This document shows, piece after piece, positions 1,648 through 53,159 of a stretch of 64,000 nt of DNA. The number at the start of each line of letters is the position of its first letter. Positions within the stretch are counted from its first letter, which is position 1. The notes beneath the pieces are model-generated. The model saw only the letters and a list, made by a program, of their open reading frames with translations, was not told the origin of the DNA and searched no databases. Origin of the DNA: an uncultured Gammaproteobacteria bacterium (lineage in GTDB: Bacteria > Patescibacteriota > Patescibacteriia > Magasanikbacterales > GWA2-37-8); NCBI GenBank assembly GCA_964355175.1, contig CAYHBZ010000001.1:174335-238334 (forward strand), written 5' to 3'. A program made the position numbers and the translations under genes.

Positions 1648-3822
1648 CTATTCGTCAATTTTATCCACTTGTCCGGATTTAAGTATTTTTGGCTTATGTT
1701 CGGGTGCTGGTTTTGGTTCAGAAGAATTAATTTCCGGCATTGCATATACTCGTACCGGCTTTTCTACTACCTGAGACGCGGGAGGGGTATATGATTTTTT
1801 ATCTTCATCTAGTGATAGGGGTGGTGGTGGACTGACAGGGGCTTTTGGAACTACAGGTTGTGTTGGATTCACCGGCGGTTGTGTCTGGTGGCGAGGCTCT
1901 ATGGTCGATGACTTAGATTGTTGAGGTGATTGTAAGGCGCTCAGAGATATTCCTTTTTGTTGTGTATCCACTATCGCCACTGGTGCGCTTTGATTGGGGT
2001 TGCCAAAATTTTGTCCCCCTTTATTTCTTTTTCTCTTTCTTTTACCACTACCAGACTGACCTGATTGGCCTGGCTGACCGGCGGGACGCTGCTGCATCTG
2101 ACTACCAGATGATGGCTGATTATTTGCTACCGGACGCACTACAGCGGAAGTGTGATGCGTGGTGGGCACTACTCTTGGTGCTGGATTGGACGGAGCGGGC
2201 GCAGGAATTGCCGGAAGTACATTGATATTATTTTCAATCACCACAATATTTTGCATCGGTTCGGCTACTGGAGCAGGAGCGACCGAAGCTGGGGCGGGAG
2301 CTGACTGTGGTGTTGGTTTAGGCTCTGCTGGTTTTGGAGCAGGCGGTGGAGTGCTAGGCGGTGGTGTAGGTTTGGTAGCAGCTGGCGGCGGAGTTTTGGC
2401 CACTGGTTTTTCTACTGGTTTTTTATCTTTTGGAAATTCCGCAAACATTGAATCTTCATCATCTACTTCCAGCTGAGCGGCTTCATCGCCTGGAATAATC
2501 ACCATACCGCTCCAACGCGCAATTTTATCTTCGATCTTTTCTCTGTTTACAGCGTAGCGTTCACGCGACACACGCACCACTTTTTCCATACTGCCGGTGG
2601 CCTGCGCGATAGGAGCCATAGTGAGCGCGCTAAACGGACGACTGGCCACACCATCAATCATTAATTTAAGATAGATATGAAACTTTGGCAGATTGATAAG
2701 ATCTTCTTCGACAAAAGTAGGAATAAATTCTTTGGCCAAAATTTCGGCATCACTGGATCCTACACGAAAAGTTACGATAGTACCCACGTTACCAATTACA
2801 GCCGCTAATACTTCTTCTTCGAGCTGTTCCATATATTGGTGAGCCATCGTGAGGTCCAAGCGATATTTACGGGCTTCAGATAAAATATTAGCAAAAGATT
2901 CAGTCGCAAAATTTTGAAATTCATCTACATACAAAAAGAAATCTTTACGCTCAGTTTCAGGCGTATCTACGCGCTCCATGGCGGAGAGCTGAATTTTGGT
3001 GATAAGCATACCGCCAAGCAGACGCGAATTATCTTCACCAATTCTGCCTTTACTGAGGTTCATGATGAAAATCTTTTTCTCATCCATGATCTCGCGAATA
3101 TTAATACGAGATTTTACCTGCGCTACGATATTACGAATCACCGAAGCTGATAAAAATTGACCAATTTTATTTTGGATAGGAGCTACGGCTTCTTGTTTAT
3201 ATTTATCATTGTACGAAGCAAACTCTGTCTGCCAAAAAGCTTTTATTACCGGATCCTGAGTATTATTCACTACGCGGCGGCGATATTCTTCGTCGGCGAG
3301 CAATCTATTAATACCCAAAAGAGTGGTGCCGGGAAAATCCAAAAGCGCCAAAATAGTATTATTTAAAATGTATTCCATTCTTGAGCTCCAAACATCCGGC
3401 CAAATTTTCTTGAACACACCCATCAAACCAGAAGCTACTAAATGTTTTTGATCCGGACGAATGGTTTCCAAAATATTAAAGCCGATTGGATAATCCAAAT
3501 CGGACGGATTGAAATATACCACATCATTGATGCGGTTGGCTGGAATATAATTGAGAATTTTTTCAGCGGTGTCACCATGTGGATCTACATAGCCCAAGCC
3601 ATGGCCGGCATAGATATCGTTGAGCACCATGTTTTCCAGCAAAGTAGTTTTGCCCATACCGGTTTTACCCACTACATACATATGGCGACGGCGATCGTCG
3701 AGCTTGATACCAAATTTGCGATTTTGATTGCGATAGTTGGCCAAACCAAAAAAATTAACATCGGGATTACCCAGTGGATTATTGGCAGGATCTGTACTTG
3801 GATCTAAAATTAAATCGCTCAT
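1648..3822 (-). CDS. VirD4/TraD/TraG-family P-loop ATPase (type IV coupling-protein-like) with a long Pro/Ala/Ser/Gln-rich C-terminal tail
   Basis: Walker A YVVGKTGMGKTT and Walker B LYVDEFQNF, with overall TraD/VirD4-like layout. No N-terminal TM helices. The last ~300 aa are a low-complexity PAPAP/TPPP tract containing GKRKRKRNKG. The DNA at 1800-2500 is correspondingly GC-rich and repetitive. Confidence 0.6.
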   Translation of the reverse strand: MSDLILDPSTDPANNPLGNPDVNFFGLANYRNQNRKFGIKLDDRRRHMYVVGKTGMGKTTLLENMVLNDIYAGHGLGYVDPHGDTAEKILNYIPANRINDVVYFNPSDLDYPIGFNILETIRPDQKHLVASGLMGVFKKIWPDVWSSRMEYILNNTILALLDFPGTTLLGINRLLADEEYRRRVVNNTQDPVIKAFWQTEFASYNDKYKQEAVAPIQNKIGQFLSASVIRNIVAQVKSRINIREIMDEKKIFIMNLSKGRIGEDNSRLLGGMLITKIQLSAMERVDTPETERKDFFLYVDEFQNFATESFANILSEARKYRLDLTMAHQYMEQLEEEVLAAVIGNVGTIVTFRVGSSDAEILAKEFIPTFVEEDLINLPKFHIYLKLMIDGVASRPFSALTMAPIAQATGSMEKVVRVSRERYAVNREKIEDKIARWSGMVIIPGDEAAQLEVDDEDSMFAEFPKDKKPVEKPVAKTPPPAATKPTPPPSTPPPAPKPAEPKPTPQSAPAPASVAPAPVAEPMQNIVVIENNINVLPAIPAPAPSNPAPRVVPTTHHTSAVVRPVANNQPSSGSQMQQRPAGQPGQSGQSGSGKRKRKRNKGGQNFGNPNQSAPVAIVDTQQKGISLSALQSPQQSKSSTIEPRHQTQPPVNPTQPVVPKAPVSPPPPLSLDEDKKSYTPPASQVVEKPVRVYAMPEINSSEPKPAPEHKPKILKSGQVDKIDE

Positions 3823-3861
3823 GAATATATTATAACATTTTTAGCAGAGAATGATAAGGGA

Positions 3862-9836: not shown

Positions 9837-10157
9837 TTAAGCGATTTCTACTTCAGTAAATCTCTGTCTCTGACCATGTACTTTGTGGAAACGAACTTTG
9901 TTCTTGAATTTTTCTACGCGTAGAGTTGGGTATTTACCTTGTTTGAGCACTTTACCCACTACTGCGGCGCCTTCCAAATAAGGTTTTCCAAGTTCTACCA
10001 AATTTCCTTCTTCGTCAGCTTTCAAAAGTACTTTATCGAATTTGTATTCTGTGCCTTCGGCTACAGCTACATTTTCTTTATTCAATTTTTCAATTTTTAA
10101 TTTATCACCGGATGTTACAATATATTGTTTGCCGCCGGTAGCGATAATCGAGATCAT
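9837..10157 (-). CDS. rplU: 50S ribosomal protein L21
   Basis: MISIIATGGKQYIVTSGDKLKIEKL... and the C-terminal FHKVHGQRQRFTEV are canonical L21. Confidence 0.9.
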   Translation of the reverse strand: MISIIATGGKQYIVTSGDKLKIEKLNKENVAVAEGTEYKFDKVLLKADEEGNLVELGKPYLEGAAVVGKVLKQGKYPTLRVEKFKNKVRFHKVHGQRQRFTEVEIA

Positions 10158-10267
10158 AATTTTAAATTATTGGCCCATTTTTTAAAGTTCAGCGAAGATG
10201 AACTGCGGGCTTCTTCTTATATAAACAGGGTTAATTATAGCAAATACAAGCTGAAATGTCAATACTA

Positions 10268-10720
10268 GGCTGTTTAGATTGACAAAAAGCTAATTTCTAT
10301 ATACTATGAGTGCGCAACGCAGCCAAACTGCGCAGGAAAAAAACGATGTTTCTGACCTGTGATGAAACCAATCACTCCCTGGAAGAAACCTGGCCGCTCT
10401 GGGCCGGAACACGGTCGGATGTCCCTACCCATTCCGCTTTGAGCCACAATGTGATCCAGAAGATCCCTGAGGACCAGAGGCGTTCGACTCCTTGTCAGCC
10501 TAGCGTCGGCGATGATGGTGTAGACATCCACGAAGCGGAGAGTACGACCCATCGTGGTTTCTACCACATGACCGGGTTTAAGCTCGGACGCTTCGCGTTT
10601 TCCATTTCTGGCGAGACGGCCCGCAAGTACCTGCCTCGCCACTACAGCCGTTACCCGGCAGTTGCAAACTGACAGGAGGAATATTGGAGGGGTGTGCCGG
10701 CGGACCACACTAAACGTCCG
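10268..10720. ncRNA. GC-rich structured-RNA candidate (unassigned; tmRNA-like features at 10268-10501)
   Basis: A ~450-nt island of much higher GC than its surroundings. Overlapping ORFs on both strands (10304..10723 and 10310..10672) are typical GC-island artefacts. Many hairpins. 5' GGCUG-uuua-GAUUGAC (10268-10284) resembles the tmRNA 5' end. GGACCAGAGGCGUUCGACUCCUUGUCAGCC (10471-10500) resembles a tmRNA T-arm plus acceptor 3' strand. UAGGCUG at 10266 pairs perfectly with CAGCCUA at 10496. A possible tag frame (gct aat ttc tat ata cta tga) is followed by a stable hairpin. However, the tag is atypical and 10502-10720 is unexplained, so family and strand are uncertain. Confidence 0.35.
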
Positions 10721-10728
10721 CACATCTC

Positions 10729-12296: not shown

Positions 12297-12326
12297 GGAT
12301 CCTTCGCTTCGCTCAGGATGACAGGC
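12297..12326. repeat. Short REP-like repeat unit GGGATCCTTCGCTTCGCTCAGGATGACAGG (reverse complement of TGTCATCCTGAGCGAAGCGAAGGATCCC)
   Basis: Near-identical sequence recurs at 47833-47863 in the opposite orientation. It contains an ATCCT...AGGAT inverted repeat. The unit explains the spurious ORF 12282..12497. Confidence 0.6.
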
Positions 12327-16823: not shown

Positions 16824-17255
16824 TTATACTCCTAATTCAGCCATCTTTTCGGCAATGTCATTGCTGTTGGATTCGGTTTGGGTTTTGTATGTCTTCCATT
16901 TCTCTTCATCCCAAATTTCCGCGCGACTATACAAACCGGCCAACACCACATTCTTTTTTAAACCGGCAAACTCGCGTAAATATTCCGGCAAAACTACACG
17001 GCCTTGTTTGTCGATTTCTACTTCCATCGCTCCGGCCAACATGAGACGCGCAAAGGCACGACTGTTGGATTGAGAAAATGGCAGAGCGGCTAATTTTTCA
17101 GCTAGCTTGGCCCATTCGGTTTTGGTGTAGAGAAATAAACAATTGTCCAAACCACGAGTGACTACGGCACCCTTATTTAAGGCAGCACGAAATTTGACCG
17201 GTATGGCCAACCGTCCTTTTTCATCCAAATTGTGACCGTACTCGCCAATGAACAT
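16824..17255 (-). CDS. mraZ: Transcriptional regulator MraZ
   Basis: MFIGEYGHNLDEKGRLAIPVKFR and a second SpoVT/AbrB-like repeat (DKQGRVVLPEYLR). Start chosen at MFIGEY; the ORF is open to 17312. Confidence 0.85.
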   Translation of the reverse strand: MFIGEYGHNLDEKGRLAIPVKFRAALNKGAVVTRGLDNCLFLYTKTEWAKLAEKLAALPFSQSNSRAFARLMLAGAMEVEIDKQGRVVLPEYLREFAGLKKNVVLAGLYSRAEIWDEEKWKTYKTQTESNSNDIAEKMAELGV

Positions 17256-17357
17256 AAATTTTAAATCACCATTTCTCTCCACTACTATCCATTTTACACC
17301 ACTTTGAAACATTGGTCAACACTTTTTACCAAAATAATCATGCCATTTTTTAGCTAA

Positions 17358-19038: not shown

Positions 19039-20400
19039 TTAAACTTCAATTATTAAACTTTTTTCCGCTATAAGTGTATTTATACCCAATTTTTCTTTTA
19101 TTTTTTTCATAAATGATTCGCGAGCACCATTTTCACCATGATTCAGACAAACTTTTTTTGGCAAACTTTTGGCACTGCTCATCCAATCCAATAATTTACG
19201 CTGATCACCGTGCGCGGAAAAAGCACCGAGGGTTTTCACTTCACATTTTACCGCCACCCTTTCGCCCATTATATTTACACTGGAAGCACCTTCCTGAATT
19301 TGCCGGCCAAGTGTGCCGTGAGCTTGATAACCAATGATAAGCAAAGTGCTCTGCGGATCAGAAAGATAACGTAGAGCGTGGTACAAAATACGCCCGCCGT
19401 TCATCATGCCGGCGCCAGCGATAATAATTTTTGGATTGTGGGTGTTATTAATACGCTTGGAATCTTCGCGGGTTTCCGATAACACCAATCCTGGAAAATC
19501 AAACATATCATCCCCACTCTTCATCAGTTTTACCGCTGCTTCATCATAATACTGAGTATATTTGCGATAAACCCGAGTAGCGCCAATTGCCAAAGGGCTG
19601 TCCAAAAATATTGGCATGGCTGTCAGACGATTTTCCTGTTCAATTAATTTGTCCAATTCATAGAGCAATTCCTGCGTACGCTCTAGAGAAAAAGACGGAA
19701 TCATTAGCACACCACCGCGCTTCACTGCGGCGAGCACAGCTTGCTCCAGAATATCACGACGAGACTGCTCGGACTCATGAAGCCTGTCCCCATAAGTGGA
19801 TTCACATACCAACAAATCAATATCTTCCGGTAAATTATCCGTATCACGCAAAATTGGCACATGGACACTGCCAACATCTCCGGAAAATACTATTCTTTTG
19901 CCTTCAGCCATTACCTCAATGAAGGCCGAACCAAAAATATGGCCAGCATCACGCAGAAGAATCTTCACACTGCCGTCTCCAAACAAATCTTGTTCATGAT
20001 AATAATCTATCGGTTTGAACTGTTCCATTACACCAGCAATATCTTGTTCGCTATATAGAACTTCCCGACCAAATTTTATATGGTCATGCTCCATTACCGA
20101 CAAAGCGTCACGCAGTACCAATTCGGCCAGCTCCATGGTAGCTGGGGTAGCGTAAAAAAATCCAGTAAAACCTTCTTTTACTAAAATAGGTAGACGGCCG
20201 GTGTGGTCCAAATGAGCATGGGTAATAACTACCGCCGAAATCTCACTAGCATCATATGGCAAAGGATCGTGATTTTTGGCTTCATTAAAATCCCCGCCCT
20301 GAAACATACCACAATCCACAATAATTTTTTTATTCCCGGTTTCAATCAGACTATTTGATCCGGTGACTTCTCCTGCCGCGCCAAAAAAATGTACTTTCAT
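19039..20400 (-). CDS. MBL-fold beta-CASP ribonuclease (RNase J / CPSF73-like)
   Basis: HAHLDHTG metallo-beta-lactamase motif, beta-CASP region, C-terminal RNA-metabolising MBL domain; 453 aa. Confidence 0.7.
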   Translation of the reverse strand: MKVHFFGAAGEVTGSNSLIETGNKKIIVDCGMFQGGDFNEAKNHDPLPYDASEISAVVITHAHLDHTGRLPILVKEGFTGFFYATPATMELAELVLRDALSVMEHDHIKFGREVLYSEQDIAGVMEQFKPIDYYHEQDLFGDGSVKILLRDAGHIFGSAFIEVMAEGKRIVFSGDVGSVHVPILRDTDNLPEDIDLLVCESTYGDRLHESEQSRRDILEQAVLAAVKRGGVLMIPSFSLERTQELLYELDKLIEQENRLTAMPIFLDSPLAIGATRVYRKYTQYYDEAAVKLMKSGDDMFDFPGLVLSETREDSKRINNTHNPKIIIAGAGMMNGGRILYHALRYLSDPQSTLLIIGYQAHGTLGRQIQEGASSVNIMGERVAVKCEVKTLGAFSAHGDQRKLLDWMSSAKSLPKKVCLNHGENGARESFMKKIKEKLGINTLIAEKSLIIEV

Positions 20401-47822: not shown

Positions 47823-47898
47823 TCATCCCATACATTGTCATCCTGAGTGAAACGAAGGATCCCTACCATTGTCATCCCGAACAAAGTGAGGGATCTTT
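47819..47898. repeat. Tandem array of ~2.5 REP-like units (ATTGTCATCC-N-GAGTGAAACGAAGGATCCC / ATTGTCATCCCGAACAAAGTGAGGGATC)
   Basis: Direct repeats of a ~30-nt unit, each with a small inverted repeat (ATCC..GGAT). Unit 2 (47833-47863) is nearly identical to the reverse complement of 12297-12326. Confidence 0.6.
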
Positions 47899-47906
47899 CA
47901 CTCTAC

Positions 47907-50900
47907 TCAAAATGACTGTGAAAACCATCCTGGCGGACTCCAATAAGTATTAACGTTGATAAAATTACGGGTATCCATATTAGTCAGATTTAATTGTGGA
48001 AATGGATTAGCCGATCCGGCCATAATACCTTCGGTAAGATTGTAGAAGAAACTATTATCCACTGACAGTGCCCCGGTATTCACCTGGACTCCTTTTATAG
48101 TTGGGAAAAAAGTATTTTTAGAAGTATAACCAAGCGAAGTATTATTTAAATTAACTGTAGAACTATTTATTTGAATTATTTCTACCGGCAAACGATTGTC
48201 TATTAGCTGGCAATTTTCCAAAGTAACCTGCGAATTATTATTGACAGAAATTACACCCTTGTAACTATCTCCGGGAGAATTATAACCACCACCGGAAAAA
48301 TTGACTGAATTTAAATTTCCTACACCACCATCAAAAACTAAATGACCCCAATATTTATTTAAACCTGTCGGGCCTACAAATTTTATAGGCTCATCAACCG
48401 TGCCGTTTAAAGTGAGAGTACCTTTGATGAAAATATTAGAAAATTGTGGCAGATAAAAAGATGCCCCTTTGTCCGCTGCCAAACTACCTCCGGCTTCAAT
48501 AGTAACATTTTCCAAATTAATAGGGATACTAGTTCCCACAACGACTGAAGAAGTGATAGTCGCCATGGCGATATTTACCGCACCATTGGCACTATTGGAA
48601 AAACTAATAACATCAAGAAGGCGTGGCCAAATATTTTTAACGTAAATAGCGCCGGTAGGGTTAGAAAAATTATCTACTGTAATATTTTCTAAACTTAATT
48701 GTCCGCCGTAATGCTCGATAGCGGTAATGCCATTTTTAAAATTAGTACTATTAATAGAAGATTTGGAATTAATTTCATAAATAATTGTATCGCCGTCATC
48801 AACAAAATCTGAGCCACTAATATTTAAGCTAGCGCTATCGGCATATATTGCTTCAGAAACAGGCAGCTGTGATGAATTAAGATTCGGGGCGCGGAATTTG
48901 GCTCCGGCGTAACTCATTTCCAAACCCTTTAAATCCCCTTTTGATCCGGGATAAAACATCAATCCTTGCCAGGACTTGGACAATTTATTATCTGACGTCA
49001 TGATAACTTTTTGAGAGGGCGAACCAGAGGTATTTAAAGTGCCTTTGATCTCAATTTTTGAATTAGGATAATAGGCTTTTACAACAGCACCTTCTTCTAT
49101 GCTAAGAATTTTGCCGGCCGGCACTTCATAGTAAGTTAAGATATATGGATAATCACTCTTTTTCAGAGTGCGCTCGACATCTACCTGAGTCGCGCGTAAC
49201 ACAATTGATCCAAAATTAGATTGTTTTGGTGAACCATTTAAGGGTAAAGCATCGCCACCACCATCTACCTTACCGGCGAGGCGCGGACCCTGGTTGGTTT
49301 GCCAATTATTTGAAAGATTGCCAGATAAAGTAGAGTTAATCTTTTCCATGGATGAATATGTTGTCGCCGATCCGGCAAACCATCCGGCTGAAGAATTTAA
49401 TTCATCCACCAAATTATTTTGACTATCAAATAATTCCAGACGCGTTCCACTATTGGACAAACTGCCAGAATAAATAAGGTCGCCGTCAATTTCATTGACC
49501 GTACGATTATCAGGATTTTCCAGCAGGTAATAACCGTGCGCCGGTATGGTGGAATTATTTATTTTATTTATATTTATTTCTTGACCGGCAATTTTTAGTT
49601 TCCATCTTTTCTGAATGTTGGTAGTGGAAAATAATTCTATATCTTGATTAGTATTGTTATAAAGCTCAATATACTCATCTTCAGAAGTGAATTGTGAGGT
49701 GCCAGCCCAAGCGACTTCATTTATGACAACGTCAGGAACTACGACAGGCGCAGTTTCAACAGTGGAAGTGACAACTGTGGTAGTGTTGGATACAGTGGTA
49801 GTGACTACTTCGGTAGTGGAGGTGACAACAGTAGAGGTGGTAGAAGTAGTAAATGAATCTAAATTTTCTATCTGGTCTGGAATAGTGGATGTGCTGAAAA
49901 TAGTAGACGTAGTATCAATTTCAGGTTCGGTTGAAGTTGTGGAAGTTGGAGATATTATTAAATCTGATGGATCTGGAGTAGTCGAGGTTGAAGTGGTGGT
50001 AGAAGTGGTGGTATCTGGAACATCAGAATTCGTCGATGTGGTTGAGGTGTCACTAGAGGATGATTCACTGGTTGTGGTAGGAGCAGAGACATTACTGTCT
50101 TCGGTAGAGGTAGTGCTGACAGGAATAGTGACAGTAGGAAAAGCACTAGAAGTATTTTCTGAATTAGATAAATTTGTATTAACCACAGGGCTGGCCGAAC
50201 CACCACCTCCGCCACTTGTTGCTGGGAAGTTCGAGGTAGCACGAGGAGTAGTAATTATTTCATTGGTTGTTATAGGTCTGTCATTTGGCAATTCTGGCAC
50301 GAAACTGACAGGATTAGATTGGTCTGAATTTTTCAGTGTAGATGGGGTTTGGGAAGCAACATTCTGAGATATTGGAATTTTTTTATTTATACTCTTGCCG
50401 ATATTTTCTATCTTACTCACTATAGCATCGGTGGTTTTATTTAATGACTGCGTTACAGTTTGAGTCAGCACTCCACTGCTGGTATCGGCTTGAGACGCAT
50501 TACCTTTATAAATATTCTCAGCGACATTAATTACGGCACCACCGAGACTATTTACCAGACCACCAAGATTACTTCTAAAAAAAGGCAGTTTTTCTGTTTG
50601 ATTTTTCTGAGTTTCGTCGAGGAATAATTTTATGGTACCGGCGCTGTAGGCGACTGCTTTGGGGAGGAGGTGGTGAGCATAGTCGGACAACACAAGGTCC
50701 TCATTCAATATTTTATGATTACTTTTTTTCCAATCAGATCCGTCCGTTGCATAAAGACTAAAAAATTCTTGATCTATCTTACTCTGAATTAAAAACATCT
50801 TATCATATTTTGTTTTTATTTCTAACACCTTATCTACGCTGTTAATTTTATAATTTTTATCTTCAATAGTATCATCACTATAAAAATTATTATTAGAATA

Positions 50901-51503
50901 ATTAGCAGCTCCATCAAATATATTCTCTAATTTATCTTTATAAATTGGCTGAACATTTATATCCTTACTTATGGCATTCCAATTATTTTTAACATATTCT
51001 TCATATGAATCTGGCTTGGGCGCGTGAATATCATCACGAGTATGTGCTGGCACCAGTGCATCAGAAACCAAATGAATATTGTGGCCTAGCTTCTTAAATG
51101 CAGACTCCTGATCGCCGCTGCGATAATCGCTTATGGCTCTCTGCCAACTATTATCACCTTTGGAATAACTTTTTTGCTCTACCGGATCCTTGGCCCACAC
51201 TTTTGAACTTTCATGCTGAGTTATAAACCATAAACCGCGATTATATATAGGATCATAAAAATGATTAAGCCACCTAGTGGGGTTATCTTCTTCTACTGCC
51301 CCTTGTTTAATCCACTCATACTGCTCAACGGTAATTTTTTTGCTATTATTTTTATTATAAACTTTGACCGCCAGACCAGCTATTCCGGGATGGGCAATAT
51401 TGGTATCATAACAAAAAACCTGGTCAACAAAAACCAAGTTTAAAACAGCTCCTAAAGTAAATAGAAAAACAAAAAACAAAATTTTGCCCCCTCCCTTTTC
51501 CAT
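47907..51503 (-). CDS. Giant secreted protein: zinc-dependent phospholipase-C-like domain, Ser/Thr-rich linker, lamin-tail domain and C-terminal beta-helix-like repeats
   Basis: Signal peptide. NHFYDP and HLVSDALVPAHTRD match the Zn-PLC / S1-P1 nuclease signatures (HFYDP; HYxxDxxxPxH). Long T/S-rich tract (TTSTTTSTSTTPDPS...). LTD core VVINEVAWAGTSQFTSEDEYIELYNNT. C-terminal G/N-rich repeats. Confidence 0.7.
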   Translation of the reverse strand: MEKGGGKILFFVFLFTLGAVLNLVFVDQVFCYDTNIAHPGIAGLAVKVYNKNNSKKITVEQYEWIKQGAVEEDNPTRWLNHFYDPIYNRGLWFITQHESSKVWAKDPVEQKSYSKGDNSWQRAISDYRSGDQESAFKKLGHNIHLVSDALVPAHTRDDIHAPKPDSYEEYVKNNWNAISKDINVQPIYKDKLENIFDGAANYSNNNFYSDDTIEDKNYKINSVDKVLEIKTKYDKMFLIQSKIDQEFFSLYATDGSDWKKSNHKILNEDLVLSDYAHHLLPKAVAYSAGTIKLFLDETQKNQTEKLPFFRSNLGGLVNSLGGAVINVAENIYKGNASQADTSSGVLTQTVTQSLNKTTDAIVSKIENIGKSINKKIPISQNVASQTPSTLKNSDQSNPVSFVPELPNDRPITTNEIITTPRATSNFPATSGGGGGSASPVVNTNLSNSENTSSAFPTVTIPVSTTSTEDSNVSAPTTTSESSSSDTSTTSTNSDVPDTTTSTTTSTSTTPDPSDLIISPTSTTSTEPEIDTTSTIFSTSTIPDQIENLDSFTTSTTSTVVTSTTEVVTTTVSNTTTVVTSTVETAPVVVPDVVINEVAWAGTSQFTSEDEYIELYNNTNQDIELFSTTNIQKRWKLKIAGQEININKINNSTIPAHGYYLLENPDNRTVNEIDGDLIYSGSLSNSGTRLELFDSQNNLVDELNSSAGWFAGSATTYSSMEKINSTLSGNLSNNWQTNQGPRLAGKVDGGGDALPLNGSPKQSNFGSIVLRATQVDVERTLKKSDYPYILTYYEVPAGKILSIEEGAVVKAYYPNSKIEIKGTLNTSGSPSQKVIMTSDNKLSKSWQGLMFYPGSKGDLKGLEMSYAGAKFRAPNLNSSQLPVSEAIYADSASLNISGSDFVDDGDTIIYEINSKSSINSTNFKNGITAIEHYGGQLSLENITVDNFSNPTGAIYVKNIWPRLLDVISFSNSANGAVNIAMATITSSVVVGTSIPINLENVTIEAGGSLAADKGASFYLPQFSNIFIKGTLTLNGTVDEPIKFVGPTGLNKYWGHLVFDGGVGNLNSVNFSGGGYNSPGDSYKGVISVNNNSQVTLENCQLIDNRLPVEIIQINSSTVNLNNTSLGYTSKNTFFPTIKGVQVNTGALSVDNSFFYNLTEGIMAGSANPFPQLNLTNMDTRNFINVNTYWSPPGWFSQSF

Positions 51504-51514
51504 ACTAATAAATT

Positions 51515-52015
51515 TTATAATGACTCAATATACCAATATCCATTACTAGTTTTAATAAATGTCATAAAATTTGCCACCTTTTCACCTTTATATGTGCCGC
51601 TATAGATATAGGTGGCTGTCATATTACCCATAACATCTTTGCGCATATCCTTTATATCACTCATCATCAAATTCAATTGCCCTTTTGTTTTTAAACCCAT
51701 CAAAAATTCTTTCATCGAAGCTCTATCCCCTTCCCTAAAACAACAATTCACCGCTTCATCAAAATTTTCTTCTTTTAAAGCAATCAGAAATTTGCGATGT
51801 GTCTCTTCCGGAGACTGTACAGTAGGGGCGGTGTTTTCAGCATCGTGCGGGTACAGCTTTTCCAATTCATTATCACTATAATCGCTATATGGAAAATCCG
51901 GACGAGCCGTACCATTCAGAACTCTTTTCTGTTTTTGCAAAAACCAATTATAAGAAATAAATATTACCACAACTCCCAAAACTAATATTACAAACCATAG
52001 AAAAACCTTTTTCAT
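51515..52015 (-). CDS. Hypothetical membrane-anchored protein
   Basis: N-terminal TM (VFLWFVILVLGVVVIFISYNWF), then a soluble domain; no family recognised. Confidence 0.4.
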   Translation of the reverse strand: MKKVFLWFVILVLGVVVIFISYNWFLQKQKRVLNGTARPDFPYSDYSDNELEKLYPHDAENTAPTVQSPEETHRKFLIALKEENFDEAVNCCFREGDRASMKEFLMGLKTKGQLNLMMSDIKDMRKDVMGNMTATYIYSGTYKGEKVANFMTFIKTSNGYWYIESL

Positions 52016-52241
52016 ACTACCCTGTAAAAAATTAAGGTCCTATATCCCGCCGAAAAATATCGGCGGGATAAGGACGCGATGACAGGTGGCTAGCGTGCTA
52101 GCCTAAAAGCTTCCAAAAAAAATTCGACAAGAGGTTACTCGTTGCCGAAATCTTTTTGGGTCCCCCTCCCCTATTCATTGCACATTTATTATAGCACATT
52201 TTTTGAGAGGCTCCCCTTTTATCCCCTGTGGATAACTTTTT
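52016..52241 (-). promoter_or_regulatory. Structured 5' leader region: extended -10 promoter (TGcTATAAT on minus strand, complement of 52188-52196), attenuator-like hairpin plus U-run (52112-52158), then two GC-rich hairpins before the start codon at 52015
   Basis: Minus-strand TGCTATAAT. Hairpin AATTCGACAAG...CGTTGCCGAAAT is flanked by A8 and T5 (bidirectional terminator geometry). Perfect hairpins ATCCCGCCGA-aaaat-TCGGCGGGAT (52046-52072) and GGCTAGC-gt-GCTAGCC (52091-52106). G-rich GGGGAGGGGGACCC. A plus-strand hairpin plus T7 at 52211-52241 abuts the upstream gene's stop. Confidence 0.45.
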
Positions 52242-53159
52242 TTATTCAATGTTCCAGGCATCTTTGAGCTGTCTAATACCATCTTCCAATTTTATAGTCG
52301 GTTGCCATCCAAGCAATTCTTTTGCTTTGATAATATCAGCTTCAAAGTAGCGCCCATCACCCGCTCGTGGGGGCACAAACACACTTTCCCCACCAATTAA
52401 TTTTACCAGATCATTTACCGAATGAGGATTGTTGTTACCAATATTTATGGTCTCACCATGGCCAACTTTATCTCCCTGCATGGCCAAAATATTAGCCCTA
52501 ACCACATCGCTGACATGCGTATAATCGCGATAATATTCACCATCACCACACACGGTCATTGGTTCGTTATTCTTTTTTTGTTTTAAAAATTTACCTACGA
52601 CCAAAGCATAAGCGCCATCTGGATCAAAATATGGTCCGTACACATTAAAATAAATCAAGCTCACGGTTTGTAATCCAAATAATTCGGAAAAAATACGACA
52701 ATAATGTTCGCCAATAAACTTATGTAAAGCGTACGGACTGATAGGGTTTTTTATCACTTCATCTTCCTTGAAAGCTTCGTGTTTTTCCTGAGAACCATAA
52801 GTAGAAGAAGACGAAGAAAAAACTATACGCTTTACTTTATTTCTCACGGCTGCCATTAATACCTGTAAAGTACCGTTAACATTTACATCGTGAGTAAGCT
52901 CCGGATTCTCTACTGAAAAACTCACACGCGGTAAAGCGGCCATATGAAAAATACCTTCGACACCAATACAAGCTTTATCCAAATCAGCCGCATTACGAAT
53001 ATCTCCTTCAATATATTGAGCTCCAGATTGGATTCTTTCTTCTTTTTTACCGCCAGCATAATTATCCAGCACGACCACCTCATGACCTTCGTTCAAAAGT
53101 TGCTTGGTCAAGTTGGTACCAATAAATCCCGCGCCTCCGGTAATTAAATATTTTGACAT
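52242..53159 (-). CDS. NAD-dependent epimerase/dehydratase (UDP-hexose/UDP-HexNAc(A) 4-epimerase-like)
   Basis: ITGGAGFIGTNL, catalytic S...YxxxK (SPYALHK), extended SDR length. Confidence 0.8.
   Translation of the reverse strand: MSKYLITGGAGFIGTNLTKQLLNEGHEVVVLDNYAGGKKEERIQSGAQYIEGDIRNAADLDKACIGVEGIFHMAALPRVSFSVENPELTHDVNVNGTLQVLMAAVRNKVKRIVFSSSSSTYGSQEKHEAFKEDEVIKNPISPYALHKFIGEHYCRIFSELFGLQTVSLIYFNVYGPYFDPDGAYALVVGKFLKQKKNNEPMTVCGDGEYYRDYTHVSDVVRANILAMQGDKVGHGETINIGNNNPHSVNDLVKLIGGESVFVPPRAGDGRYFEADIIKAKELLGWQPTIKLEDGIRQLKDAWNIE

Follow-up and report, generated by a model that had tools for sequence, protein, structure and literature searches.

A conserved terminator-containing leader with a Shine-Dalgarno-like tract as the putative control region of a surface-protein operon in Candidatus Magasanikbacteria

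What is the function of the 226-nt gap (52016-52241) that separates an NAD-dependent epimerase gene from the gene for a 166-amino-acid (aa) protein on the minus strand of a 64-kb stretch of contig CAYHBZ010000001.1? This whole stretch is referred to here as the window; all coordinates are positions in it unless a related locus is named, WIN denotes its own sequence and L-numbers denote related loci. Homologues of the 166-aa protein belong to Candidatus Magasanikbacteria, a lineage of the Candidate Phyla Radiation (CPR)/Patescibacteria, and to our knowledge almost nothing is known about gene regulation in these mostly uncultured bacteria. Judged by its sequence, the gap is the control region, promoter plus 5' leader, of a conserved two-gene operon in which the 166-aa gene (51515..52015, minus strand) is followed by a giant surface-protein gene of 1198 aa (47907..51503, minus strand). 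Comparative sequence analysis lends good support to a terminator-containing regulatory leader that is conserved as a functional unit. The best explanation of its mode of action, to which we give a probability of about 0.5, would be a box-controlled promoter followed by a promoter-proximal attenuator and a 5' element like the stabilising Shine-Dalgarno (STAB-SD) sequence of Bacillus, acting through a trans factor.

Comparisons of related loci provide the evidence for such a unit. A total of 85 loci were fetched, of which ~69 are non-redundant, and 14 more were added later. The module has the order AAAGTTATCCACAG, spacer, TGTGnTATAAT, GGAGG-type purine tract, A-tract with hairpin and U-run, AU-rich stretch and ATG, and its box, -10 element, G-tract, hairpin and U-run are found before the orthologous gene in ~45 non-redundant lineages. 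A covariance model built from 41 distinct copies returns one match per locus, which in the window spans 52115-52166 with 23.9 bits. First, only 11-13 nt remain between the U-run and the ATG in L015, L045, L077, L018 and L016; a second promoter would not fit into these minimal loci, so transcription of the operon has to pass the hairpin, and this requirement makes the module a cis leader rather than a free-standing small RNA (sRNA) gene. Second, L008 and L054 carry their own terminator 5' of the box and nevertheless keep the module, so that its hairpin is not merely the terminator of the upstream gene. Third, other genes are inserted 3' of the module in L062 and L071, and a small open reading frame (ORF) in L021; thus it is the beginning of the operon that the module marks, rather than the 166-aa gene in particular. 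L021 (its positions 3508-3720) contains two tandem units of G-tract plus terminator, then a second TGTTATAAT and a small transmembrane ORF before the 166-aa gene. In two more distant loci, L020 and L064, the box, a TTGAC[CT] -35 hexamer and the -10 drive the gene directly, without G-tract or hairpin, and in L040, L048 and L052 an inverted box variant, TGGGGATAAGT, stands beside TTGACA-17-TATAAT. A separate observation concerns L040 (885-1465), L010 and L042, where a HicA/HicB-like toxin-antitoxin pair lies between the operon promoter and the 166-aa gene and the leader is replaced.

These comparisons bear directly on the independent small RNA that the earlier note on this sequence had offered as one of its readings. 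The module could be a short trans-acting sRNA gene of ~45-70 nt with a G-rich 5' seed: it comes with a strong promoter of its own and a canonical terminator, sRNAs usually have the same arrangement of a conserved single-stranded 5' segment ahead of a terminator hairpin, and a short RNA would be made anyway if the terminator works. However, the module is linked to the operon in every case and in constant orientation, it holds the sole possible promoter of the minimal loci, and L020 and L064 keep box and promoter without the RNA element. In the window's clade, selection acts at the RNA level on the sequence past the U-run, which also pairs back with the 5' segment (see below). The 64 kb also offer no complementary C-rich trans target, since the G-tract motif GGAGGGGG is absent from the plus strand. 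An sRNA gene is quite unlikely on this evidence. A mobile or repeated element was likewise considered and rejected: the gap has no second copy within the window, its hairpin arms show no repetition beyond chance, and the TGTCATCC... repeats lie elsewhere (12323, 47836-47930). The latter are short intergenic repeats of the TGTCATCCTGAGCGAAGCGAAGGATCCC type, resembling miniature inverted-repeat transposable elements or repetitive extragenic palindromes (MITE/REP-like), with plus-strand copies at 47836-47930, a minus-strand copy at 12323 and 63 matches in the loci; in several relatives they are inserted between the leader terminator and the ATG.

The promoter consists of an extended -10 element, TGTGCTATAAT (52188..52198, minus strand), in which TGCTATAAT occupies 52196-52188 and TGTG extends to 52198, in agreement with the element first noticed here. 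Its form TGTGnTATAAT recurs in ~45 non-redundant lineages and is invariant in the ten closest relatives. The promoter has no -35 hexamer, which explains the absence of the site from a simple promoter scan, and TGnTATAAT is not significantly enriched in the window (8 found versus 5.5 expected); its significance therefore comes from conservation in relatives and not from within-window statistics. Spacing from the -10 predicts a transcription start near 52181, at or just before the G-tract. Other promoters of the genome read TTGACA-17-TGCTATAAT, for example upstream of rplU. This gene for ribosomal protein L21 (start 10153; region 9839-10270, minus strand), too short for the 110-aa ORF list, combines a textbook promoter of this form with a small hairpin in a leader of ~70 nt and has a clear terminator at ~9825-9795; the overlapping GTG ORF at 10304..10723 is probably spurious. 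All eight perfect TGnTATAAT sites lie on the minus strand, several of them 7-30 nt before ORF starts. At a 724-aa TraG/TrwB-like gene (1648..3822, minus strand), TGTTATAAT lies at 3822-3837 and ends 6 nt before the ATG, an arrangement that suggests a leaderless mRNA.

The hairpin that follows, P1 (CCAAAAAGAUUUCGGCAA ... UUGUCGAAUUUUUUUUGG, 52113..52159, minus strand; inverted repeat I1 and predicted fold), starts 29 nt past the -10, consistent with the terminator-like hairpin within ~30 nt that had been described. Its arms (52159-52142 and 52130-52113) are 83% complementary over 18 nt, and a U8 run occupies 52122-52115. P1 thus has the G-C stem-loop and immediate U-run by which an intrinsic (Rho-independent) terminator is defined in sequence, and it occupies the position of an attenuator, between the promoter and the regulated gene, with the order -10, hairpin and ATG conserved. 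In the family alignment, each of the eight consensus pairs covaries, both partners having changed, and pairing holds in 92% of cells, compared to 77% in column shuffles and 35-64% with partners slid. The P1 stem sequence is wholly replaced in L089 and L094 yet fully complementary. In 42 lineages the folding free energies of the hairpins range from -9 to -26 kcal/mol, and a U-run of 5-8 comes after almost all of them. Terminators at gene ends in the window, for example those downstream of rplU and of the 1198-aa gene, have the same form of A-tract, stem and U-run.

The simplest account of these features would be that P1 is the terminator of the upstream sugar-nucleotide operon and that TGCTATAAT occurs beside it by chance in AT-rich DNA. 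P1 is the first terminator after the epimerase stop, and the lack of enrichment of TGnTATAAT in the window also fits. The comparative data already contradict this reading, which we consider extremely unlikely: the -10, box and G-tract keep their order in ~45 lineages despite different upstream genes or an upstream terminator of their own. The upstream sugar-nucleotide genes are common to only ~20 loci.

Between the -10 and P1 lies the G-tract GGGGAGGGGGA (52171-52161, minus strand), part of GGGGAGGGGGACCC (52171-52158); the earlier note had seen such a tract but placed it after the hairpin. In most lineages the GGAGG-type tract of the leader starts 6-8 nt past the -10, 40-150 nt from the ATG, and the window's wider group has a 13-nt extension (GCAAUGARUA...) ahead of it. 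The tract resembles a Shine-Dalgarno sequence in a genome that appears not to use them: an SD-like 4-mer (GGAG, GAGG or AGGA) is present at -20 to -4 of 2 of 49 ATG-start genes, compared to 6.8% of random 17-mers, and no Shine-Dalgarno sequence precedes the ATG of the 166-aa gene. GGAGGGGG has two copies in the 64 kb, one in the leader and one at the start of the 1198-aa gene, both within the operon. The second G-tract, GGGAGGGGG (51487..51495, minus strand), spans codons 3-6 of the giant gene and is the second-best match to the covariance model in the window. Nearly all loci have GGAGG 4-10 nt after the ATG of the giant gene, where the codons are GGA GGG (Gly-Gly) in the window's relatives and AGG AGG (Arg-Arg) elsewhere; because the motif is kept in two reading frames, selection acts on its nucleotides. 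When all loci are taken together, GGAGG-type motifs are most frequent at exactly these two places, the leader and the giant-gene start. Neither the SD-likeness of the G-tract, nor its second copy at the start of the next gene, nor the DnaA-box-like operator described below had been recognised in the first reading of the sequence.

Three other interpretations of the G-tract were set aside. An AUG (CAAUGA) 6-9 nt before it could open a leader peptide, M-N-R-G-G-G-P-K-K, similar to M-E-K-G-G-G-K of the giant protein; this was ruled out by a frame broken between WIN and L086 and by the lack of the AUG in most clades. The tract fits the pattern of the FtsK orienting polar sequences (KOPS, GGGNAGGG), but it keeps a constant place at the transcript start, which speaks against this function. 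By eye, it is complementary at 10 of 11 positions to the 5' arm of P3, one of the clade-specific helices described below; this complementarity is confined to the window's clade and was not used further.

A documented precedent exists for an SD-like tract that does not serve initiation. The STAB-SD of Bacillus cry3A lies 129 nt from the start codon, does not initiate translation, binds the 30S subunit and blocks 5'-3' decay (PMC4113751). Like it, the G-tract is an SD-like purine tract near the 5' end, here predicted, of a long 5' untranslated region, too distant for initiation and upstream of a gene for a very large protein. Unlike it, the G-tract is followed at once by a terminator-type hairpin with U-run, its host otherwise lacks Shine-Dalgarno use, a second copy lies inside the next gene, and for the G-tract both 30S binding and a 5'-3' exonuclease are only supposed. 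G-tract and hairpin could together be a 5' mRNA stabiliser and nothing else, with a non-terminating hairpin and a U-run that serves to pair with the A-tract. In keeping with this are the precedent, the place of the tract close to the predicted 5' end and well away from the ATG, the lack of Shine-Dalgarno use in the genome, and folds in which most of the U-run is paired to the A-tract and G-tract; an operon with a 3.6-kb gene would profit from a stable mRNA. However, the hairpin is indistinguishable from terminators at real gene ends in this DNA, nearly all non-redundant hairpins are followed by a U-run of 5-8, of which 2-4 U usually stay unpaired, and the tandem duplication in L021 fits attenuators better. 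An RNase J equivalog was also not found in the window. A role in stabilisation only is thus unlikely.

A further possibility is that the G-tract serves the 166-aa gene as its actual Shine-Dalgarno sequence and that the intervening hairpins fold away to form a split ribosome-binding site, as described for phage T4 genes 38 and 25. The likeness lies in a hairpin between an SD-like sequence and the start codon, whose folding shortens the effective distance. Once P1 is folded, 11-13 nt are left before the ATG in the minimal loci; in the group with 28-bp spacing between box and -10, a weak closing helix, UGAGU/ACUCA, recurs ~10 nt before the ATG; and in L010 and L048, two loci without the hairpin, AAGGAG precedes the ATG at canonical spacing. 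Unlike in the T4 genes, the residual distance is no shorter than 11-13 nt and is much greater in the window, where ~150 nt and four helices lie between G-tract and ATG, and the hairpin carries a terminator U-run, which is conserved and would be left unexplained. The genome is otherwise without Shine-Dalgarno use, L021 has two units and ~60 nt more to bridge, and the G-tract of the second gene comes after its ATG. A split site is decidedly unlikely.

Additional structure is present in the window's clade, which comprises ten sequences that share the whole gap at 75-90% protein identity (L086 is partial in the later alignment). The box, the -10 and 27 nt past the -10 are almost invariant there, and the 5' segment AAATGTGCAATGAATAGGGGAGGGGGAC (52160..52187, minus strand) has substitutions at only two positions in nine of the ten closest relatives. 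In the RNAalifold consensus, helix P0 joins its 3' strand, CCUGUCAUCGC (52076..52086, minus strand), to 52181-52170 (GCAAUGAAUAGG); P0 encloses P1 and P2, and the three helices make up a three-way junction that contains GGAGGGGGAC. P0 is part of the minimum-free-energy fold of eight of nine single sequences (L087 is the exception) and of eight of nine centroids; 98.9% of its cells are paired, with one compensatory change, G-C to A-U, in L094, where the G to A substitution is one of the only two variable positions in the 5' segment and the partner changes from C to U. P2 (GGCUAG-CACG-CUAGCC, 52088..52103, minus strand; inverted repeat I7, GGCTAGC/GCTAGCC) is kept in the ten closest relatives and absent from other clades, and in L092 pairing is preserved only through two U·G pairs. 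P3 (GUCCUUAUCCCGCCGA-UAUUUU-UCGGCGGGAUAUAGGAC, 52037..52075, minus strand; inverted repeat I2) contains a perfect 11-bp hairpin, TATCCCGCCGA/TCGGCGGGATA, at 52070-52043. Its cells are 98.8% paired; three pairs have changed on both sides, and six have changed one-sidedly to U·G or G·U wobbles that are tolerated only in minus-strand RNA. The changes in P2 and P3 fit a sense-strand RNA and not DNA. RNA-level selection past the U-run indicates that read-through transcripts exist and matter. Other clades have nothing at this place, a weak AU hairpin or unrelated repeat insertions. Both GC-rich perfect hairpins of the earlier note, that of P2 (52103-52088) and that of P3, are therefore real; the check for covariation that it had proposed finds changes at all P1 pairs and compensatory or wobble changes in P0, P2 and P3, and against the loss of the hairpins in related genomes that it had named as refuting its view, P1 is conserved group-wide and the GC hairpins in the ten closest relatives. 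The gap also folds more stably than shuffled sequence (z = -5.3 on the minus strand), and the similar value for the plus strand (-5.1) is expected because the elements are DNA palindromes.

The P0-P1-P2 junction could be the aptamer of a new metabolite riboswitch, as a consistent three-way junction in a 5' leader with a highly conserved junction strand and variable, covarying stems would suggest. However, P0 forms only after polymerase has passed the terminator and so cannot control it; outside the clade only the G-tract and P1 are present, and the loop and stem sequences of P1 are unconserved; only ten closely related sequences are available, P0 having one compensatory change among them; and no Rfam family matches. 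A riboswitch is very improbable. The search of the whole window against Rfam 15 gave no match at gathering score; on this region the matches were at chance level only (best E = 0.45 and 2.7, on the wrong features), and the leaders of 13 related loci gave nothing at E <= 0.1. No tRNA or tmRNA was found. SAM-II (RF01726) reached 20.7 bits compared to a gathering score of 44, covers promoter DNA (52181-52222) and does not recur in relatives; gltS (RF02982; 22 bits compared to 47.5) lies on the opposite strand and does not recur either. Of the riboswitch or attenuator control of 51515..52015 originally suggested, the part that stands is a promoter with a terminator-containing leader, conserved in ~45 lineages and covarying; the leader gave no gathering-score match to a known riboswitch. 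A literature search on Shine-Dalgarno use in Patescibacteria and on promoters in Magasanikbacteria found nothing relevant.

Upstream of the promoter, an A-tract with GTTATCCACAG (52226..52243, minus strand), an 11-mer unique in the window, contains the core TTATCCACA (52235-52227), a perfect match to the 9-mer DnaA-box consensus; its flanks, G...G, are those of the Escherichia coli high-affinity boxes R1 and R4. The 9-mer occurs at the same spot in 62 of the 85 related loci, mostly once per locus. At this site the earlier note had described a separate plus-strand hairpin plus T7 abutting the epimerase stop. The hairpin is a 6-bp pairing of TTATCC in the box with GGATAA (52235-52230 with 52224-52219; GGATAA at 52219..52224, minus strand), seen in the centroid fold; it is found in WIN, L086, L089 and L094 and is absent from the other close relatives, so that a role for it is unsupported. 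What is conserved here is the sequence AAAGTTATCCACAG, which includes the 9-mer, and not a hairpin. Three classes of spacing, 19, 25-30 (mode 28) and 37-40 bp, separate the box from the TG of the -10, and the steps of ~9.5 bp are close to one helical turn, as would be expected for a protein that faces the polymerase. The box is a putative operator of the operon promoter, with DnaA as the obvious candidate for its binding protein.

The only other perfect TTATCCACA in the window, at 17398-17390 (minus strand), precedes mraZ, with which the division cluster begins. It is found unchanged at the same place in four further Magasanikbacteria genomes (L096-L099, at ~565-632), and in each of the five it directly abuts a terminator hairpin. 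The mraZ promoter, TTGAC[CTG]-17-TAnAAT, lies downstream of the box, with ~100-105 nt (~60 nt in L098) between the box and its -35 hexamer, and is followed by GTGG repeats. The two boxes look like a regulon of one site-specific DNA-binding protein. MraZ operator sites are short direct repeats at the promoter; the MraZ-type repeats here, GTGG after the mraZ -10, are distinct from the box, which was therefore rejected as an MraZ operator. The window was also rejected as oriC: it has a single box at the locus, and its cumulative GC skew falls monotonically without a switch. Separately, the mraZ ORF is listed at 16824-17312 (minus strand, 162 aa), most MraZ homologues have 143-148 aa and the mraZ -10 lies inside the ORF; the listed start is probably too far upstream. 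In E. coli, DnaA boxes control the promoters of dnaA, nrdAB and mioC. The operon promoter resembles these in its single, asymmetric and perfect upstream site, to which the second conserved copy before the mraZ cluster may be added, and differs in having one box only, with spacing that varies in ~9.5-bp steps and an mraZ box that is far from its promoter.

Taken together, a plausible model is as follows. A box-binding protein, most simply DnaA, would set the activity of the promoter, and the transcript would start at or just before the G-tract and then meet P1, a promoter-proximal terminator that may be leaky or conditional, i.e., an attenuator. The G-tract would be the site of a trans factor, for which the 30S subunit, through the 3' end of its 16S rRNA, is the simplest candidate. 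A 30S subunit bound a few nt before the 5' arm of the hairpin would hinder its formation, make read-through more likely and shield the 5' end of the long mRNA. The same factor would have another site in the second G-tract, just inside the giant gene. Leaders that are read through in the window's clade would fold further, into the P0/P1/P2 three-way junction with the G-tract in it and then P3. A factor-dependent mechanism is likelier than a classical structural switch because neither an antiterminator nor a conserved leader peptide was found. Attenuators that depend on trans factors include the LoaP-dependent leaders and pyrG of Bacillus subtilis. The present leader shares with them a promoter, a short conserved single-stranded element, an intrinsic terminator and an envelope or surface operon, and the tandem duplication of the G-tract-plus-terminator unit in one relative may be counted as a further likeness. 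It differs in that no antiterminator, leader peptide or known factor-recognition hairpin was found and in that its recognition element is SD-like.

Several points weigh against this model. The start site, the termination efficiency and the read-through are all inferred from sequence, and the G-tract is presumed to be complementary to the 16S rRNA 3' end of this organism. No conserved antiterminator pairing was found: the near-invariant 5' segment is unable to pair with stems as unlike as those of WIN, L089 and L094. In predicted folds the U-run is paired to the A-tract and in part to the G-tract, so the hairpin could be purely structural. We know of no established mechanism that fits a G-tract placed after a start codon. 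The box-spacing classes roughly correspond to three clades and thus represent few independent events, and the geometry of the mraZ box, distant and abutting a terminator, is unlike that of the operon box. Finally, the beta-CASP ribonuclease of the window (19039-20400, minus strand) is aCPSF1/Cas14-like and not an RNase J equivalog: it scores best against models of type VII CRISPR Cas14 and archaeal aCPSF1, below their cut-offs, and reaches 22 bits with the RNase J model. This gene adjoins the mraZ region in several genomes (L098, L099).

The two operon proteins give some indication of what is controlled. The start codon of the 166-aa gene (52013..52015, minus strand) encodes an M1 that is invariant in an alignment of 25 homologues, and its position agrees with the N-termini of 24 homologues. 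The protein has no Pfam or NCBIfam match; a transmembrane helix and an NTF2/cystatin-like domain are predicted (predicted local distance difference test, pLDDT, 86.6), and a fold search with the model gave no significant structural match. In almost every locus its gene is followed by one for a protein of ~1200 aa with a lamin-tail domain, a weak phospholipase-C-like N-terminus and long Ser/Thr-rich tracts. The match of the giant protein to the phospholipase C structure 8cqm is weak (E = 0.003, residues 116-177); it is plausible that it is a host-contact or lytic surface protein. The upstream epimerase gene (52242..53159, minus strand; PF01370) ends with its stop codon at 52244-52242.

The locus is a compact and phylogenetically well-supported regulatory unit, with a DnaA-box-like operator, an extended -10 and an RNA leader, and the operon encodes a giant protein of the kind expected in host-cell contact. 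In a genome without SD-led translation, its leader appears to use an SD-like tract for something other than ordinary initiation. The most far-reaching version of the model is a ribosome-sensing attenuator, in which the SD-like 5' tract captures free 30S subunits that cover the 5' arm of the adjacent terminator, and promoter firing is tied to the replication cycle through the DnaA box shared with mraZ. This version is decidedly improbable as it stands; if it is true, transcription of the operon and protection of its mRNA would be coupled to ribosomes with an accessible anti-Shine-Dalgarno sequence, and the tract inside the second gene would reuse the same principle. Thus, if the G-tract acts through the ribosome, the leader would represent a new coupling of transcription to translational capacity; if it is not linked to the ribosome, the locus would still be a new candidate RNA motif for Rfam-type curation.

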